Shown here piece after piece: positions 6,301 to 64,000 of a DNA stretch of 64,000 nt. The position numbers and the translations under genes were made by a program. The stretch is from assembly GCF_054482595.1 (NCBI RefSeq), contig NZ_CM137008.1; one strand, 5' to 3'. The notes under the pieces are model-generated. The model saw nothing but the letters and a program-made list of their open reading frames with translations, did no database searches and was not told the DNA's origin. Each line of letters starts with the position of its first letter. Position 1 is the stretch's first letter.

Positions 6301-7022
6301 TAAGCAGCCTCCCCTGTTACTTTCAGCATTCCGTTATCGAGCAGCTTTCTGGTCAGCCACTGTTGACCACGCCCGGTGATTTTTGTGGTAAACGATATCT
6401 GTATTCCGTGATTTGTGTTGACCGCTGTTTCTTTCACTGTGAAATAGCCGCGATCCATATATTCCTGCATTGGCACATTGCGCCGGGAACCTGAAGCAAT
6501 AAGGATTTTGTGATCGCGCATCCATGCAAACAGTTTGTTTGGACCAATACCAACAACCTTTGCATAGTTTCCAATCAAAATTCCGCTGGCCTCGCCAACT
6601 CGATCGGCAAACTCAACTTTAGGTGCGGCAATTGCGAGCTGGTTTTCCAGTTGCATTTTCTGCTCAGCAAGATCAGCAGCAAGGCGCAACGCTTCCGGTA
6701 ACGTTTTGGGGATATTAACCGCAGTTTCTTCAAGCTCTCGCCAACGGTCAACAAGACGAGCGGTGAATTCCGGCGACAACTGGGCTACAACGACAATACT
6801 GTCTCGCTTTCCTTGTTCGCCTTCGAAGACGTAAGCCTCGACACTACGGCGCAGCCCTAAGTTATTGATTTTTTCGAAAACCTGCAATGCAGGAAGTTGA
6901 ATAACTCCAGATTTAGCCAGGCGCTCTATTGATATTTTTACGTTATCTGGACGACTTCCCACCAACTCAGCGATTTCAATGCTTGTCATTTTGATGGCAT
7001 TGCCATTTATTAACTCATTCAT
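6300..7022 (-). CDS. Phage antirepressor, Rha N-terminal domain with Ant-type C-terminal domain
   Basis: 240 aa; N-terminus MTSIEIAELVGSRPDNVKISIERL typical of Rha family. Confidence 0.55.
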   Translation of the reverse strand: MNELINGNAIKMTSIEIAELVGSRPDNVKISIERLAKSGVIQLPALQVFEKINNLGLRRSVEAYVFEGEQGKRDSIVVVAQLSPEFTARLVDRWRELEETAVNIPKTLPEALRLAADLAEQKMQLENQLAIAAPKVEFADRVGEASGILIGNYAKVVGIGPNKLFAWMRDHKILIASGSRRNVPMQEYMDRGYFTVKETAVNTNHGIQISFTTKITGRGQQWLTRKLLDNGMLKVTGEAA

Positions 7023-7701: not shown

Positions 7702-8547
7702 TCATGCCGCATCCTCAAAATTAAATCCAAGCTGACATGAAAATGCTTCACATGATTCAGAACACGAACCTGAATCATACTGTCGCATTGATGTCATTCT
7801 TGAGGCTAACTCATCTCTTGATATATCACTAAACAAGGCAATCAGTGATTTAAGTGTATTATTCCCTCGATACATAACCGGTTCCTTTCCTGTTTTTATT
7901 TCTGTATCAAGGATGTTGATAAATGCATCTGCAAGTTCTGGCTCATCCATGGCTGCCAGCGCAACCTTTTGCATACTTTTTTTTATACAGAAAACACAAT
8001 TACCAAGATGCTCCTGTATGCCAAGATCAAACTTCTGCCCACTCCACCAATCAAGCACATCCTGTTTTTCAAAATCGCTTATATCAGCCAGGTACCGAAA
8101 ACCATTAGCCCTTTTAAGCCTGTTTGGTTCATCTGTGCGAATGCCAAGCCATGTGATGTAATTTCCTTTCCCAAACTTTTCCTGACAATATTTGGTGAAT
8201 GGAACAGACTTCATTCTGTCGGTACAGAACGCACCGCCGATATATGGATGTCCGTATTTATTTAACATCCTTTTCCACGGTATAAGATCTGGACCAATAT
8301 CATTGACACCTATCTCTTCATAACTACTGGCCTTCCCCATTTCTGGATTAGGTATTACACGAAGGCAATGTAAGTCTATTTTCCAGTTACTGACGATATT
8401 TCGGATGAACTCATATGTTTTAGGGTGCTCTGCCCCTGTATCCATGAAAACGTAATGCACGTCTTCACCTGACTGTCGCTTTTGCTCCATTAGCCAGAGC
8501 AAATATGCTGACGTCCTGCCACCTGAGAAACTAACGACATTTACCAT
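7702..8547 (-). CDS. PAPS reductase-like / PP-loop ATP pyrophosphatase family protein (possibly NinC-equivalent)
   Basis: N-terminal [16 protein letters not shown]-loop motif; start set at Met MVNVV so it abuts the methyltransferase gene; NinC equivalence not verified. Confidence 0.5.
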
Positions 8548-9071
8548 GCAGCCCTCCTGACGCCCTGCCCGATCGCCATCAATGCCGCTTTGGATACGGT
8601 AGTAAACATCCGTCGAGGACTGATGAACGGTCGCCAAATCAGCAGCATGGAGCCTTTGCTGTTTCCCTTCTTCTCCAGCCCTGTCGATGGTTCGATAAAA
8701 TTAATCCGTCCATCAGTGATGATGCGAACTTCGTCAATACTCTCCAGAGCCTTGCTGAACCATCCGACAGACATATCCTCTGGCACAAGCATCACTACCG
8801 TCTGTCGCTGTTGTATGCACTGCTCAGCGGCTTTTTCCACCCACGGCCTGATATTGCTGTACGGTGGGTTATTCCAGATTGCACCGTGGCTTATCCACTC
8901 AGAATTTAGCGCGTCGTCGGCCTCAGTTAACCAGTGAGCGCACAGAGCATTTTTGTCGCTCGCTGCCGAATCCAGCCAGAATCCAAACTCAATATCCAGT
9001 GCATCAAAAAGCCAAAGCGGCGTTTGCCAGCAGTCCTTGTCGTGTGCTGGCGTATTTGATTTGATAGTCAT
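8541..9071 (-). CDS. Phage Dam-like DNA N6-adenine methyltransferase
   Basis: WQTPLWLFDAL...NPPYS motifs; start set at MTIKSN overlapping ninB stop. Confidence 0.6.
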   Translation of the reverse strand: MTIKSNTPAHDKDCWQTPLWLFDALDIEFGFWLDSAASDKNALCAHWLTEADDALNSEWISHGAIWNNPPYSNIRPWVEKAAEQCIQQRQTVVMLVPEDMSVGWFSKALESIDEVRIITDGRINFIEPSTGLEKKGNSKGSMLLIWRPFISPRRMFTTVSKAALMAIGQGVRRAAW

Positions 9072-58611: not shown

Positions 58612-60180
58612 TTAGCGTGCCGGCTGAGTAGTCGTGGAAGACTGCTCAAAGTGATAGCGACCGGTTTTCAGGCTGCTTGGGCCGAGGCGTGCAAACTTGA
58701 ACATTAAGAACAATTCTGCCACCAGGAACAGGGTATACAGGCCGCAAATCAGCACCATTGAGAAGATGAGATCGCCTGCGGTCAGTGACGAGTTCGCCAC
58801 AGCTGTCGGCAGCACTTCACCGATAGCCCACGGTTGGCGGCCATATTCAGCCACGAACCAGCCCGCTTCTACAGCAATCCACGGCAGCGGAATACCGTAC
58901 AGCGCGGCGCGCAGGAGCCATTTTTTCTCGCCAATGCGGTTGCGGATGACACTCCAGAAAGAGAGCGCGATGATTGCCAGCAGCAGGAAGCCACACGCCA
59001 CCATGATACGGAACGCGAAGTACAGCGGCGCTACACGCGGAATGGAGTCTTTGGTTGCCTGTTGAATCTGCGCTTCAGTCGCATCAGCCACGTTTGGCGT
59101 ATAGCGTTTCAGCAGCAGACCGTAACCGAGGTCCTTCTTCATGCTATTGAACTGGTCACGAACCGCCTGGTCGGTAGAACCAGAACGCAGTTGTTCGAGC
59201 AGAGAGTACGCCTTCATCCCGTTACGAATGCGTTCTTCATGCTGCACCATCAGTTCTTTCAGGCCGATAACTGGAGTATCCACGGAACGCGTTGCAATGA
59301 TGCCCAGCGCGTAAGGGATCTGGATCGCAAATTTGTTCGTCTCCTCTTCCTGATCAGGAATGCCGAACAGAGTAAAGGCAGCAGGCGCAGGTTGCGTTTC
59401 CCACTCGGCTTCAATAGCAGCCAGTTTGGTTTTCTGCACGTCGCCCATTTCGTAGCCGGATTCATCACCCAGAACAATAACAGACAGAACGGCAGCCATA
59501 CCGAAGCTGGCAGCGATAGCAAAGGAGCGTTTAGCGAAGGCGAAGTCACGACCTTTCAGCATATACCATGCGCTGATACCGAGGATGAACATCGCGCCAG
59601 TAACATAACCAGACGCTACAGTGTGAACGAATTTCACCTGAGCAACCGGGTTAAGCACCAGCTCGGAGAAGCTCACCATCTCCATACGCATAGTTTCAAA
59701 GTTGAAATCGGACGCGATTGGGTTTTGCATCCAGCCGTTCGCAACCAGAATCCACAGTGCGGACAGGTTTGAACCGAGCGCCACCAGCCAGGTGACACAC
59801 ATATGCTGAACTTTACCCAGACGATCCCAACCGAAGAAGAACAGACCTACAAAGGTGGATTCGAGGAAGAAGGCCATCAGACCTTCGATTGCCAGCGGCG
59901 CACCGAAGATATCCCCTACATAGTGGGAATAGTAAGACCAGTTAGTCCCGAACTGGAACTCCATGGTCAGACCGGTAGCCACACCCAGAGCGAAGTTGAT
60001 ACCAAACAACTTGCCCCAGAACTTGGTCATATCTTTATAAATCTGTTTGCCGGAAAGGACGTAGACCGTTTCCATAATGGCCAGCAGGAACGCCATACCG
60101 AGCGTCAGTGGCACAAAAAGGAAGTGGTACATCGCGGTCAAGGCAAACTGTAAGCGCGACAGTTCGACTATATCTAACAT
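58612..60180 (-). CDS. cydA: Cytochrome bd-I ubiquinol oxidase subunit I
   Basis: 522 aa from [12 protein letters not shown]. Confidence 0.95.
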
Positions 60181-60517
60181 CATGACTCCTTGCTCATCGC
60201 ATGAAGACTCCGAGAGTGAACCCCGTTAGAAAGGGTCACACGCATGCCCCAATACAAAATTATTTGCTCGCCTCTATCGTTGCCATTTCATCTAAAGAGG
60301 AAAAGACAATGATAAAAAAGTTACAAATATGTTAATGAATAAACCAAATTGATCCCGTAATTATATTACGCCGCAAAATCCTTACAATAAACAGGTTTTT
60401 ATTGAGCAAATTTGCATTTTTCGACAGTGATCAATTTATAGCGAAATTGTCACGATCTCACCAATTTGATCTACGACAATTTATCGTGTTTTGCAGATTT
60501 TTTTCAAGAATTAAAAA

Positions 60518-60531
60518 TTGATTTATATCAA
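60518..60531. promoter_or_regulatory. FNR-type binding site in the cydAB promoter region
   Basis: TTGATTTATATCAA matches the FNR consensus TTGAT-N4-ATCAA within the AT-rich region upstream of cydA. Confidence 0.5.
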
Positions 60532-60985
60532 AACCAACCAAATATGTTAATTATGTATAAACCATAGATCATTGGTGATTTTATTGTTAATTTATTGTGA
60601 AATATTTATGCAACACAATTATTACAATGAAAAGGTATAGATAAAAAACCAGTATTTTATTTAACAGAACCGCCTTATCCACTTTTTATAATACCAATTG
60701 ATTAGAGTAGCCAATTTGTTGCTATTTTACATAACATATTTTTATCAAAGTTAATTGATTGTTGCCTTTATGAGCACCGACCGTAAGCCCGTTATGTTAT
60801 TGTTTCATTAGTAATAATCACTTAAATGTATCGATGAAACAGGTATGACTTACCGGGAGTGATTGTTTCTGAGTGAACAGAGGCCACTTTCGCCTGATAA
60901 ATGAAAAATGAGCGATTTTTGCAAGTTAGTTTTTCTATAGCCGAGTACGCTCAGCGCCTCGCTTGATTACAATGAGGTTGCTGCT

Positions 60986-61930
60986 ATGAGTCCTGATAAT
61001 ATCGGTTCGGCTGTCAATCGCTTCTCAGGTTGGCCATCTAATGATCCTCTAAAAACAGATGAAGAATCAATGACATCACCCGTGACTGTGCAGGTAATAA
61101 AGATGATTGCCGCCATCCTTGATCCACATCGGATAGTCGTTGGAATTGATACACTTTATACAACGCAGCGCGAAACATTTACCTCAGAGAGTCAACAGCT
61201 CATTGAATCAGCATTGCAAACACTTCATGTGATGAATTTAAATAACCTGGAAACAAATCGCGATGAAGAAGGTCACTATCTGGCTTTTGAATATAACGTT
61301 GACACCTCTGACAGAATAACCGTTTCTGCTTATAATGAAAAAAAACCTGGCTGCTATGGCCAATGTCTTGTAATACAGGATGACGAAACAAACTTATTTA
61401 ACCTGATAAAAATTAAAATTTTCGAAGCCAGGCATAATTATGTCGCTCAATTGATGAGCGATCCGGAATTTATGTTCAAATTTAGTTATAGCGCTCAACA
61501 AAATAGATTAGAACCTCATCTTCTGGTTCCCACTTATTTCCCTCTAAAAACAAACGAACCGGTTACGCAAGAGGATATACTGTTACTTTATCGTTTCTTT
61601 AAAATGGATGGTGATTTTAATATATTAACATCAGATGAATACATGAGTATCATGACACCTCTGATGAAGTGTGAGCGCAGCATCCACGACCACAACAGGT
61701 ATGTGACGGGCAAAGATACCCTTCTTCTGGACTATCCTCCTTCTGGTAACCAGATATATTTCCATATTTTTCCTGACGAATCAGCAACACTAGTCCTTTA
61801 TTTTTCAAACAATGACATTGAATGTTTCGTCTTTGAAAGAGATATTCCGAGCCAGTATCGCTTTTTCAAAATGTTTACCAATCTGGCACTGGTTATTGAT
61901 CAGTTAACCGATGCCAATCAAATACTTTAA
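60986..61930 (+). CDS. Hypothetical protein in AT-rich segment
   Basis: 314 aa ORF with visibly low GC; no recognised family. Confidence 0.4.
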   Translation: MSPDNIGSAVNRFSGWPSNDPLKTDEESMTSPVTVQVIKMIAAILDPHRIVVGIDTLYTTQRETFTSESQQLIESALQTLHVMNLNNLETNRDEEGHYLAFEYNVDTSDRITVSAYNEKKPGCYGQCLVIQDDETNLFNLIKIKIFEARHNYVAQLMSDPEFMFKFSYSAQQNRLEPHLLVPTYFPLKTNEPVTQEDILLLYRFFKMDGDFNILTSDEYMSIMTPLMKCERSIHDHNRYVTGKDTLLLDYPPSGNQIYFHIFPDESATLVLYFSNNDIECFVFERDIPSQYRFFKMFTNLALVIDQLTDANQIL

Positions 61931-62011
61931 TTTTCTATATATCCCCTATGGCAAATATTGCTAAACAATGCCTGGGGATTAATTTTTATTACTCACGGAA
62001 AGATTTAAATA

Positions 62012-62434
62012 ATGATACCATCTCAGATCTCTTTCAATACCCTTCCAGTCAATGCAACATACGCTTCAGAGACAACAGTTGACACACAAAAATTCTCTGA
62101 CATCCTCTACTCAGCGGGGTGTTCCCTAAAGGATATGGCTTATCTGAGCAGATGTCTGGCATCAATACACCCGACTCTCGCCAAAAACATTTATGAAACA
62201 GAAAATCTCAGCGATCAAAAATTACTGCATATTGATTGCCGTAGTACAAATGACATCAAGATAAATATCTTTTTTGGTCAACAACGAGAAGGATTAATTG
62301 AAATTAATTCTGACACAGTCATTTTTTCGATATTGTCTTCATTAATTGACTCCGCCATTTCTAAATTTCAACACCAAATCCCCGTTAACGGTTCAGTTAA
62401 TCGTGAACTATTGTATGAGGATTATACTGATTAA
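62012..62434 (+). CDS. Hypothetical protein in AT-rich segment
   Basis: 140 aa ORF, low GC, no recognised family. Confidence 0.4.
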   Translation: MIPSQISFNTLPVNATYASETTVDTQKFSDILYSAGCSLKDMAYLSRCLASIHPTLAKNIYETENLSDQKLLHIDCRSTNDIKINIFFGQQREGLIEINSDTVIFSILSSLIDSAISKFQHQIPVNGSVNRELLYEDYTD

Positions 62435-62981
62435 ATCCACCCTGTCGCGAAAAATGGCCTGCGTTATTGCCAGACGTAATAAAACCTTTGATTAACGTTA
62501 CTCATACTGATAGCACCTTCATGTACCTCTCTTTTTTACGAAAAATTAAAAGAGCTAACTAAGGTCATAATTCGCATGAATCATTAACCATTTGTTATTT
62601 TCAACATTATTTTTACATTAAGCAGAGATGAATTGCAGTGAAATTCGACTTAAATCTTATGAAATGCATTTACTCATGGCTAAAACCACGTCACAAAAAT
62701 GCAAATTAGAAGTAGATCACAATTATCTCAATACATTAAATCAAGTTAATTTTAAAAATTTAACACTCATGACATTAGTTGACATAACACACTGAATTAA
62801 CATGAGAATTTAAAAACATACTTTAAACAATCATTTCCCGAAAGACATTTTGAAAATAGATCAATTGCAACATTACGGTCAGATAAAGACACTCCTGTGA
62901 TATTAAACCTGTGCCGTTATGAACGGCCATAAATACGACGTGTGTAACTTATTTTACTCTCTGTCTTACAAAGGATTACCC

Positions 62982-63431
62982 ATGAAGAAAGCAACACTTG
63001 TGATTGGCGTTATTGGCGCGGACTGCCATGCAGTAGGCAATAAAGTTCTGGACCGCGTTTTTAGCAACCACGACTTCAGAGTCATTAATCTGGGCGTAAT
63101 GGTCAGCCAGGACGAATATATTGATGCGGCCATTGAAACTGGCGCTGACGCGATTGTCGTCTCCTCTATCTATGGGCATGGTGATATCGACTGTCTGGGC
63201 ATGCGCGAACGCTGCATCGAGCGTGGACTGGGGGACATCCTGCTCTATGTGGGCGGTAACCTGGTAGTCGGAAAACATGACTTCGCTGACGTGGAAACCA
63301 AATTCAAAGAGATGGGATTTGATCGCGTCTTTGCCCCAAGTCATGACTTAGAAGAGGTTTGTCAGCTGATGGCCCACGATATCAACCAACGTCATGACGT
63401 TGATACTCGTATTCTTGAAGAGGCTATCTGA
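62982..63431 (+). CDS. glmS: Glutamate mutase small (B12-binding) subunit
   Basis: B12-binding domain ([11 protein letters not shown]); start set at Met MKKATL after SD AAGGAT. Confidence 0.8.
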
Positions 63432-64000
63432 TGCAAATCGTCTCTGTCGATATTGGATCGACGTGGACCAAAGCAGCCCTCTTCACCCGGGAGGGGGACG
63501 CGTTAACGTTGGTTAACCACGTACTGACCCCAACCACCACCCATCATCTGGCGAAGGGGTTTTTCTCCAGCCTGAACCAGGTGTTAAACGTAGATAATGC
63601 CCTCCCCCTGTTAAACAGCGGTGAGGTTGCATTGAAGTATTCCTCCTCTGCCAAAGGTGGGCTGGCGGTTGCCGCAATGGGATTGGTGCCTTCTATCACC
63701 CTGGAAACCGCGAAAGTAACCGCTCACTCTGCGGGTGCTAAAATTGCGCAATATTACGCCTACAAGCTGAACCGCCGTGATATCCAGGCACTGGAAGAAA
63801 CGCAGCCCGATATTCTCTTGTTCACCGGCGGCACCGACGGCGGAGAAGAAAGCTACGGACTGAATAACGCCCGTGTGCTGGCAGAATCCAAACTCGACTG
63901 CGCCATTATTTATGCCGGAAACCGGGATATTCAGGACGAGGTGCAGGAGATCCTCGGGCATAAAGACCTGACCATCGTCGACAACGTTCTGCCCGATCTT
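63431..64000 (+). CDS. glmL: Glutamate mutase accessory protein MutL/GlmL-like (partial, runs off the window)
   Basis: ATG overlapping glmS stop; open frame to window end reading [18 protein letters not shown]... Confidence 0.6.
   Translation, partial: MQIVSVDIGSTWTKAALFTREGDALTLVNHVLTPTTTHHLAKGFFSSLNQVLNVDNALPLLNSGEVALKYSSSAKGGLAVAAMGLVPSITLETAKVTAHSAGAKIAQYYAYKLNRRDIQALEETQPDILLFTGGTDGGEESYGLNNARVLAESKLDCAIIYAGNRDIQDEVQEILGHKDLTIVDNVLPDL

Follow-up and report, generated by a model that had tools for sequence, protein, structure and literature searches.

We found that two adjacent open reading frames between cydAB and the glutamate mutase (glm) genes of E. coli, here called ORF-A and ORF-B, are probably an old, real and fast-evolving gene pair confined to Escherichia and kept as an H-NS-type silenced accessory module, a reading to which we assign a probability of about 0.6. 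The practical value of this result is modest and chiefly clarifying: two 'hypothetical proteins' carried by about one-fifth of sequenced E. coli, O157:H7 included, turn out to be real genes that are selected, genus-restricted and old, neither annotation noise nor recent imports.

The window, by which we mean the whole 64-kb stretch of DNA analysed, holds ORF-A and ORF-B head-to-tail and divergent from cydAB within an AT-rich tract of ~2.8 kb. The features of the locus, in window coordinates, are as follows.

60184..60560, minus strand: cydAB proximal regulatory region (context, outside the module)
60636..60825, no strand assigned: conserved distal non-coding block in the cydA-ORF-A interval
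60880..60985, plus strand: conserved 5' region of ORF-A, presumed promoter and 5'UTR
60986..61930, plus strand: ORF-A, ATG start, 314 aa
61931..62011, plus strand: spacer between ORF-A and ORF-B, 81 nt
62012..62434, plus strand: ORF-B, ATG start, 140 aa
62435..62981, plus strand: AT-rich spacer between ORF-B and glmS
62982..63431, plus strand: glmS, methylaspartate (glutamate) mutase subunit S, from its RefSeq start at 62982; opens the adjacent glm island

A preliminary description of this DNA had placed two same-strand ORFs of 314 and 140 aa here, and their coordinates proved exact; windowed GC likewise bore out its statement that they are visibly more AT-rich than the cyd and glm flanks. GC content is 0.381 in ORF-A, 0.369 in ORF-B and 0.296 in the gap between them, against 0.529 in cydA, 0.539 in cydB, 0.496 in glmS and 0.489 over the whole window. 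Indeed, 60250-62950 is the GC minimum of the window (1-kb windows at 0.34-0.38, against a mean of 0.489 with s.d. 0.043), and its GC of 0.30-0.38 amounts to an AT excess sustained over at least 1 kb, as in H-NS-silenced regions. The long AT-rich non-coding stretches described on both sides were also evident (GC 0.332 over 60184-60985 and 0.320 over 62435-62981), although the left one is mostly cydAB control region, 93-100% identical between the window and E. albertii over 60184-60540. No integrase, tRNA or repeat boundary flanks ORF-A/B in the examined region, and repeats and inverted repeats around the locus were unremarkable.

Both ORFs appear to be genuine protein-coding genes under purifying selection. 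Their dN/dS was 0.32-0.45 for ORF-A (p between 5e-4 and 1e-6) and 0.11-0.48 for ORF-B (p from 0.04 to 7e-5), and their variable sites fell mostly at codon positions 1 and 3 (segregating sites at positions 1/2/3: 42/16/46 in ORF-A, 17/13/27 in ORF-B), so that both combine purifying selection with a codon-position pattern, all p<0.05. For comparison, dN/dS was 0.00-0.01 for cydA and 0.07-0.08 for glmS; values of 0.3-0.45 point to weak constraint. Against its E. albertii counterpart, ORF-A retains 65% amino acid identity over 314 codons with zero indels at a dS of ~0.5, and its stop-free length of 314 codons exceeded that of all 2000 composition-matched shuffles (mean 81, maximum 197). The 140 codons of ORF-B were within the range of such shuffles; because its length does not beat shuffled sequence, the coding status of ORF-B rests on conservation. 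ORF-A has a GAGG 8 nt 5' of its ATG (ribosome-binding site 60974-60977, inside the conserved 5' region), and ORF-B a weak GGAAAG ~10 nt upstream of its start. In O157 the two are annotated as ECs_0767 (WP_001310136.1) and ECs_0766 (WP_000613117.1), respectively. Both products are acidic (pI 4.67 for ORF-A, 4.78 for ORF-B), and neither contains a hydrophobic stretch of the kind found in transmembrane helices.

We consider it unlikely that the ORFs are non-functional relics or that ORF-B is a chance ORF. Near-zero transcription, decay that recurs across lineages, fairly high dN/dS and the shuffle-range length of ORF-B all fit such an account, but it sits poorly with dN/dS significantly below 1 for both, with variation that follows codon position, and with an ORF-A that has stayed intact and free of indels between species. 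It also sits poorly with the annotation of both ORFs as intact CDSs in 38 of the 40 genomes drawn from along the ranking; the exceptions were E. coli wlxctx60, in which ORF-B is frameshifted and ORF-A intact, and E. coli Br_112, in which IS elements break both.

The preliminary description had recognised neither protein, and the homology and structure-prediction checks agreed, with no match in any family library tried. Neither ORF-A nor ORF-B matched Pfam, NCBIfam, PADLOC or PHROGs, and Pfam returned nothing for any member of the ORF-A alignment; PDB sequences searched by phmmer and by profile gave zero matches for both, and tblastn against plasmids and phages found no homologue of either. A word-indexed search of 5.8 G proteins returned matches only from Escherichia and Shigella, while exhaustive phmmer of ORF-A alone against 1.84 G representative proteins returned ORF-A fragments and one Tricorn/TolB-like beta-propeller repeat protein (P0063), which we rejected as a distant relative because it matches one 30-50-residue stretch of ORF-A repeatedly. 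The scan of 100,044 species genomes picked out two mis-binned MAG contigs and, apart from these, only E. albertii and Escherichia sp. MOD1-EC7003. Relatives of ORF-A/B are confined to E. coli/Shigella, E. albertii and a further Escherichia species, with no homologue beyond that narrow taxon, and both genes appear to be orphans limited to the genus Escherichia (Shigella included). AF2 models were poor (mean pLDDT 46.2 for ORF-A and 46.7 for ORF-B); Foldseek of these models against AFDB50 returned the proteins' own family alone, and fold searches are uninformative because both models are poor. Internal duplication of ORF-A and kinship between ORF-A and ORF-B were also rejected, as hhalign assigned less than 1% probability to A aligned with B and to the halves of A aligned with one another or with B. 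Neither gene is listed in the supplements of PMC4765031, PMC8524897, PMC10469882 or PMC4764244.

Being genus-only, fast-evolving, weakly expressed and annotated as 'hypothetical', ORF-A and ORF-B resemble the orphan genes of EHEC EDL933 described by combined RNA-seq and Ribo-seq. Unlike typical young orphans, however, ORF-A is much longer (314 aa), has a predicted alpha/beta content and is older than the split between E. coli and E. albertii. As no shuffle exceeded 197 stop-free codons, an unsampled donor is a more likely origin of ORF-A than de novo birth.

ORF-A and ORF-B occur together in 1135 of 5426 complete E. coli genomes (~21%), among them the O157 strains BB24-1 and Sakai; glmS-glmL are also found in 1135 of 5426, and the contiguous A+B-glmS arrangement in 1130 of 5426. 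In HB101, a K-12 derivative, mngRAB occupies this site instead, and the statement in the preliminary description that mngB is upstream of cydA was confirmed for K-12-type genomes. The locus therefore has the distribution of an O-island, present in O157:H7 and missing from K-12. The segment had been called strain-specific, and with respect to K-12 and to its frequency within E. coli it is; beyond E. coli it is not, as ORF-A is syntenic in E. albertii and another Escherichia species. cydA, then the same 640-nt upstream region, then ORF-A follow one another in E. coli, E. albertii and MOD1, and no glm genes or remnants were found in E. albertii bearing ORF-A. B2 strains have a TPR gene and a glmS remnant at the locus (LF82 keeps a GlmS remnant).

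Synteny places the module at cydA before the E. coli-E. albertii split, with vertical descent thereafter. Because ORF-A occupies the same position in E. albertii and another Escherichia species, and because the B2 layout has a glmS remnant, the module is ancestral to the genus at this locus; the B2 layout, by its remnant, is derived, and parsimony suggests the same of the K-12 layout. The K-12 mngRAB and B2 layouts look like replacements or deletions. Within E. coli, ORF-A/B and the adjacent glm island form one haplotype block.

These observations bear on the proposal that ORF-A/B are recent, strain-specific cargo of the glm island, acquired together with the glutamate mutase genes, to which we give a low probability. 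It would account for the AT-richness of ORF-A/B relative to the genome, their absence from K-12 and their contiguity with glmS-glmL in 1130 of the 1135 E. coli carriers. It is contradicted by E. albertii, where ORF-A lies beside cydA in the absence of glm genes, by the difference in GC between ORF-A/B (0.37) and glmS (0.50), and by the lack of plasmid and phage homologues; moreover, glm clusters have been reported in five other genera, Citrobacter, Klebsiella, Salmonella, Yersinia and Morganella (PMC4682846), whereas homologues of ORF-A/B were found only in Escherichia. The marks of a recent genomic island were likewise missing: the module is present in the sister species, and we saw neither a flanking integrase or tRNA nor homologues on plasmids or phages. 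The suggestions that low GC reflects recent horizontal acquisition and that ORF-A/B came with the glm genes consequently did not hold.

Retention of the old module has nevertheless been uneven, and it appears to have been deleted, replaced or pseudogenised repeatedly. ORF-B is degraded in E. albertii, while ORF-A is intact in many of those strains, and both genes are degraded in Escherichia sp. MOD1-EC7003. The genes therefore appear to be dispensable and, because weak constraint coincides with repeated decay, may be sliding to loss in many lineages. The survival of ORF-A in E. albertii where ORF-B has decayed suggests that ORF-A works without ORF-B, and the loss of ORF-B with ORF-A intact argues against an obligate pair.

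Possible H-NS silencing, raised in the preliminary description, was found to be plausible. Matches to the high-affinity H-NS motif have a density of 4.3/kb in the segment against 1.3/kb elsewhere in the window, and in published EDL933 RNA-seq ORF-A/B have RPKM values of 0-5 in 11 conditions, in one strain and with the Z-tags assigned to the ORFs from gene order; in EDL933, then, the genes are almost silent transcriptionally under standard conditions. H-NS is reported to repress cydAB, with ArcA relieving this repression (Govantes et al. 2000, cited in PMC3708157), and H-NS binds AT-rich regions selectively in E. coli and Salmonella, according to earlier work cited in PMC4764244, whose own EHEC mapping gives H-NS-bound regions an average of 1.6 kb. 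Composition, the near-zero RNA-seq signal and the fact that H-NS is known to control the cydAB promoter next door together suggest that the AT-rich tract is probably coated by H-NS/StpA and that ORF-A/B are thereby kept almost silent in ordinary conditions; expression would occur only upon de-repression.

The segment thus resembles the AT-rich accessory segments that H-NS silences in E. coli and Salmonella (xenogeneic silencing) in its GC (0.30-0.38 against 0.489), its length (~2.8 kb), its motif enrichment, its position adjoining the reportedly H-NS-repressed cydAB promoter, its near-silence across conditions and its variable presence. It differs from them in being syntenic across Escherichia and not recently foreign, and in that H-NS binding is something we infer here.

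The presumed promoter region of ORF-A, 60880..60985, is 85-93% identical to E. albertii, above the identity of the ORF-A coding sequence. A sigma-70 consensus scan of this region returned zero sites, and promoter-like sites over 60150-63050 were at chance level (12 against 12.5 expected). A terminator scan found none after ORF-A, in the A-B spacer or after ORF-B, where a fold z-score of 0.21 likewise indicates no terminator-like hairpin; Rfam gave no match, and so no riboswitch, over 59800-63300. ORF-A and ORF-B are presumably co-transcribed.

The products themselves, both acidic, may be soluble, cytoplasmic alpha/beta proteins, a prediction of low confidence, and no feature pointing to catalysis, DNA binding, secretion or a membrane location is recognisable in them. 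With similarly low confidence, we suggest that they work via protein-protein contacts in a non-essential, conditional accessory function. Should a de-repressing condition be found, the module would offer a clean test case for the upkeep of long-lived silenced orphan genes.

The preliminary description had offered a regulatory, effector-like or toxin/immunity role, none of which gained support from any test. That ORF-A/B serve their neighbours, as accessory or regulatory genes of the glm (methylaspartate) pathway or of the divergent cydAB, seems quite unlikely to us. Near-complete linkage to glmS in E. coli, the lack of a detected terminator between ORF-B and glmS and an 800-nt control region common to ORF-A and cydAB would suit such a role. 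However, the other genera reported with a glm cluster (PMC4682846) contain no A/B homologue, ORF-A persists without glm in E. albertii, and cydAB is present without ORF-A/B in K-12 and B2 strains; the searches revealed neither a DNA-binding nor an enzyme domain, and a LysR regulator is already present at the far end of the glm island.

It is distinctly improbable that ORF-A and ORF-B are founders of an unrecognised Escherichia-specific pair, H-NS-silent, switched on only in a host or stress niche and with folds new to structure databases. Such a pair could be a secreted substrate and its partner, a toxin/immunity-like couple or a respiration- or redox-linked factor sharing the cydAB control region.

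A toxin-antitoxin or toxin-immunity pair, one product toxic and the other neutralising, is very unlikely. ORF-A/B resemble type II toxin-antitoxin and polymorphic-toxin immunity modules in forming a small cassette of two genes on one strand (81-nt gap) at a variable locus, in their fast evolution and, faintly, in very weak Foldseek matches to SMI1/KNR4 immunity-like proteins, which at E 0.3-0.4 are not significant. Unlike in those modules, searches of PADLOC, Pfam and NCBIfam turned up no domain of a toxin, an antitoxin or an immunity protein; the two products are acidic (pI 4.7-4.8) and devoid of a DNA-binding domain, ORF-A is atypically long for an antitoxin, and no association with mobile elements was seen. 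Nor are the partners co-retained, to judge from E. albertii and wlxctx60, although an arrangement with B as toxin and A as antitoxin stays compatible with that pattern.

We regard as highly improbable, too, a type III secretion substrate of LEE or ETT2 with a small acidic chaperone, ORF-B being either a class I-like chaperone or itself secreted. The case for it is one of resemblance only to effector and class I chaperone pairs such as tir-cesT: two adjacent genes, a 140-aa ORF-B product of pI 4.78 with predicted helices, three strands and a long helix beside a larger protein, and polar, S/T/N/Q/P-rich N-termini (0.52 over the first 25 residues of ORF-B, against 0.34 overall). Unlike such pairs, ORF-A/B have no family match, as Pfam gave nothing even at E<=10, chaperone families included, and they lie amid core metabolic genes with no adjoining secretion system. 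By source, isolates from urine, from wildlife (gull and bear faeces) and from livestock (a porcine ETEC) are among the carriers. ORF-B has, moreover, decayed in E. albertii, a species that carries LEE. Anti-phage defence gained no support from PADLOC-DB, in which either protein matched 0 families at E<=1, and support is thus lacking for toxin-antitoxin, T3SS effector/chaperone, defence and glm-pathway roles alike.

These comparisons mark out the sucD-cydA interval as a hot spot of replacement, for which we count at least four alternative contents. The distal non-coding block, 60636..60825, hardly varies among E. coli, E. albertii, Escherichia sp. MOD1 and LF82, a B2 strain that keeps the block though it lacks ORF-A/B; within the block, 60680-60760 is 90-93% identical to E. 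albertii, against 50-75% in the flanking stretches. This block is missing from K-12-type genomes, which have in common with the window only the cydAB-proximal part (~373 nt, ~80% identity overall). The K-12 layout, on which work on cydAB regulation is based, thus appears to be derived, without a distal conserved block common to other Escherichia. We do not regard the K-12 cyd promoter region as a foreign allele, as its ~80% identity to all other Escherichia might suggest, because the alignment consists of invariant core blocks with patchy divergence; the core blocks of the cydAB-proximal region are invariant in K-12, LF82 and an E. albertii-like locus.

Our comparisons indicate that the AT-rich segment between cydA and glmS is a typical case of something already familiar: orphan genes that are confined to one genus, long-lived and apparently silenced, lying in a hot spot of replacement. 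Its two open reading frames lie exactly where the preliminary description had placed them:

60986..61930, plus strand, ORF-A (A), 314 aa, GC 0.381
62012..62434, plus strand, ORF-B (B), 140 aa, GC 0.369

The AT-richness described earlier was confirmed, and windowed GC showed this segment to be the lowest-GC stretch of the window; the three non-coding spacers around A and B have GC contents of 0.332, 0.296 and 0.320, compared with 0.529 for cydA, 0.539 for cydB, 0.496 for glmS and 0.489 for the entire window. The 314 stop-free codons of A exceed all of 2000 composition-matched shuffles (maximum 197), and the 140 codons of B are not beyond the range of 2000 such shuffles; a GAGG ribosome-binding site lies 8 nt 5' of the start of A, and B has only a weak one. 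E. coli XH990 matches the window at 100% identity from 60200 to 64000, and its annotation at matching coordinates lists the usual core genes, running from rhlE by way of bio, gal and tol-pal to cyd.

The segment varies between strains, as had been proposed: both genes are present in 1135 of 5426 complete E. coli genomes, and K-12-type genomes have mngRAB. glmS-glmL is likewise found in 1135 of the 5426, and A-B-glmS-glmL is contiguous in 1130, meaning that the pair and the glm island, which carries glutamate mutase and methylaspartate pathway genes, travel as a single block in E. coli. This linkage is the one observation in favour of A and B serving as accessory genes of glm or cyd.

Neither protein proved recognizable, as anticipated. 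Single-sequence and profile searches of Pfam, NCBIfam, PADLOC, PHROGs and PDB sequences gave no significant match for A or B; a search of 5.8 billion proteins returned matches from Escherichia and Shigella only, and exhaustive phmmer comparison of A with 1.84 billion representatives recovered pieces of A itself and one other match, a beta-propeller repeat protein that we judged spurious. AlphaFold2 models of both were poor (pLDDT 46-47), and fold searches with them yielded nothing credible. A scan of 100,044 species, one genome each, found A in E. albertii and Escherichia sp. MOD1-EC7003 (MOD1) only, plus two MAG contigs labelled 'Collinsella sp.' (JAIJJM010000209.1) and 'Citrobacter sp.' (DXKH01000067.1); these contigs are 96-97% identical to E. 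coli, the A and B they encode are 94-97% identical to the window proteins, and they are most likely mis-binned E. coli. Plasmid and phage collections held no A/B homologue. Three 'plasmid' matches were discounted because the records are of chromosomal size (0.7-4.9 Mb); these PLSDB entries, which carry the A/B chromosomal locus (CP088669.1, 730 kb; NZ_CP141089.1, 4.94 Mb; NZ_CP134663.1, 4.90 Mb), look like chromosomes, or pieces of chromosomes, filed under the wrong label.

No relatedness between A and B was detectable, no internal duplication was seen within A, and neither protein has a hydrophobic stretch long enough for a membrane helix; both are acidic (pI 4.67 and 4.78). The missing enzymatic, DNA-binding, membrane and secretion signatures point, weakly, to roles in protein-protein interaction. 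An effector-like role had been suggested, and the small acidic B and polar N-termini do recall a T3SS substrate with its chaperone, but the resemblance is superficial, with no family match and no secretion system nearby. The suggested toxin-immunity pair, or a toxin-antitoxin pair, is at odds with the lack of any such domains in A or B, with the acidity of both products and with the failure of the partners to be kept together across lineages.

Many E. albertii strains have an intact 314-aa A, which is frameshifted in the type strain, and B is reduced there to a remnant with a stop codon. In MOD1, A is full of stops and insertions and B has lost all but its final 47 codons, next to glmS, glmL and glmE that are still full-length ORFs; the decayed A copy, at about 8300-8800 of MOD1 locus L012, has two insertions relative to E. 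coli, near window positions 61334 and 61620. Of 40 E. coli genomes drawn from the whole span of the ranking, 38 list both A and B as CDS; strain wlxctx60 has a frameshift in B alone, and E. coli Br_112_kylling (NZ_CP182371.1 4316036-4322070) has IS4-family (ISVsa5-like) insertions in both genes, with downstream glmS intact. This record of decay argues that A does not need B and that neither gene is essential.

Across Escherichia at least four different gene contents occupy the sucD-cydA interval, a hot spot of replacement.

Contents of the sucD-cydA interval
K-12 type (L005, HB101): mngR-mngA-mngB and a 75-aa ORF
B2 type (L004, LF82): one TPR-protein gene
Window and O157:H7 (L001/L008): LysR, cobO, fumD, symporter, DUF4387, AtuA, methylaspartate ammonia-lyase, glmE, glmL, glmS, then B, A
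E. albertii (L002, L011): A, then degraded B, then an OMP-like gene or sucD directly

The O157-type content is described as a 12-gene glm island plus A/B; the E. albertii OMP-like gene encodes 258 aa and is truncated in the type strain. Vestiges of the glm island persist in B2 strains: in LF82, 35 residues of GlmS survive upstream of cydA (L004, about 6827-6928), which indicates that the B2 layout arose by deletion. An O127:H6 genome (H52, NZ_LT903847.1) shows a 98.6% match to the first 510 nt of the glmS-glmL query.

The pair did not arrive together with glm, since GC differs (0.37 versus 0.50), none of the other genera in which a glm cluster has been reported (PMC4682846) yielded an A/B homologue, and in E. 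albertii A occupies the same place beside cydA without glm genes or remnants. Recent co-acquisition with glm is thus contradicted by synteny, composition and distribution, and the E. albertii locus also contradicts a recent acquisition of A/B, as implied earlier. On the simplest history, the ancestor shared by E. coli and E. albertii would already have had cydA-A-B, the glm island would have lain next to it no later than in the E. coli ancestor, and several lineages would since have lost or replaced the A-B module.

Comparison of nine alleles of A (eight E. coli, one E. albertii-like) and seven of B indicates that both are genuine protein-coding genes, with purifying selection of weak to moderate strength: Nei-Gojobori dN/dS was 0.32-0.45 for A (p versus neutrality between 5e-4 and 1e-6) and 0.11-0.48 for B (p from 0.04 to 7e-5), the counts of segregating sites at codon positions 1/2/3 were 42/16/46 and 17/13/27, respectively, and the A alignment held zero indels at 65% amino-acid identity and dS ~0.5. 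A reading as dead relics is contradicted by these ratios and by ORF integrity, weak as the constraint is. Both genes evolve far faster than their neighbours (dN/dS 0.00-0.01 for cydA, 0.07-0.08 for glmS).

The module is close to silent: in EDL933 RNA-seq across 11 conditions, its four candidate tags all have RPKM <=12, whichever tag is which ORF, and cydA ranges from 2 to 212 (PMC4048457 Tables S3 and S4). H-NS coats AT-rich DNA of this kind, according to the review and EHEC mapping in PMC4764244, and represses the cydAB promoter, with relief by ArcA, according to PMC3708157, citing Govantes et al. 2000. High-affinity H-NS motif matches are 3x denser in the A-B tract than elsewhere in the window. 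Together with the AT-richness and the H-NS-repressed neighbour, this suggests that H-NS/StpA would keep A-B silent, with expression limited to de-repressed states; composition, motif density and low RNA-seq signal make the silencing proposed in the preliminary description probable.

Scans of the A-B region found no convincing sigma-70 promoter or terminator. The ~100 nt 5' of A are 85-93% identical between species, more conserved than the coding sequence, suggesting that a control region or 5'UTR has been maintained there. The left flank, earlier taken as plain AT-rich non-coding sequence, is largely cydAB control region instead. Some 640 nt upstream of cydA are common to the window, B2 strains, E. 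albertii and MOD1, whereas K-12-type genomes share only ~373 nt at ~80% identity (window 60184-60560; HB101 locus L005 5982-6355), with invariant core blocks between diverged patches and a nearly identical cydA; next to the cyd control region of other Escherichia, the textbook K-12 version is thus shortened and diverged. A ~190-nt block (window 60636-60825), absent from K-12-type genomes and without an Rfam match, is nearly invariant between variable flanks in E. coli, E. albertii, MOD1 and LF82, which keeps it despite lacking A/B. Its core (60680-60760; 90-93% identity to E. albertii) contains the palindrome ATCAAAGTTAATTGAT, and the block may act as a distal control element of cydAB, or correspond to a small RNA or small gene that has escaped annotation.
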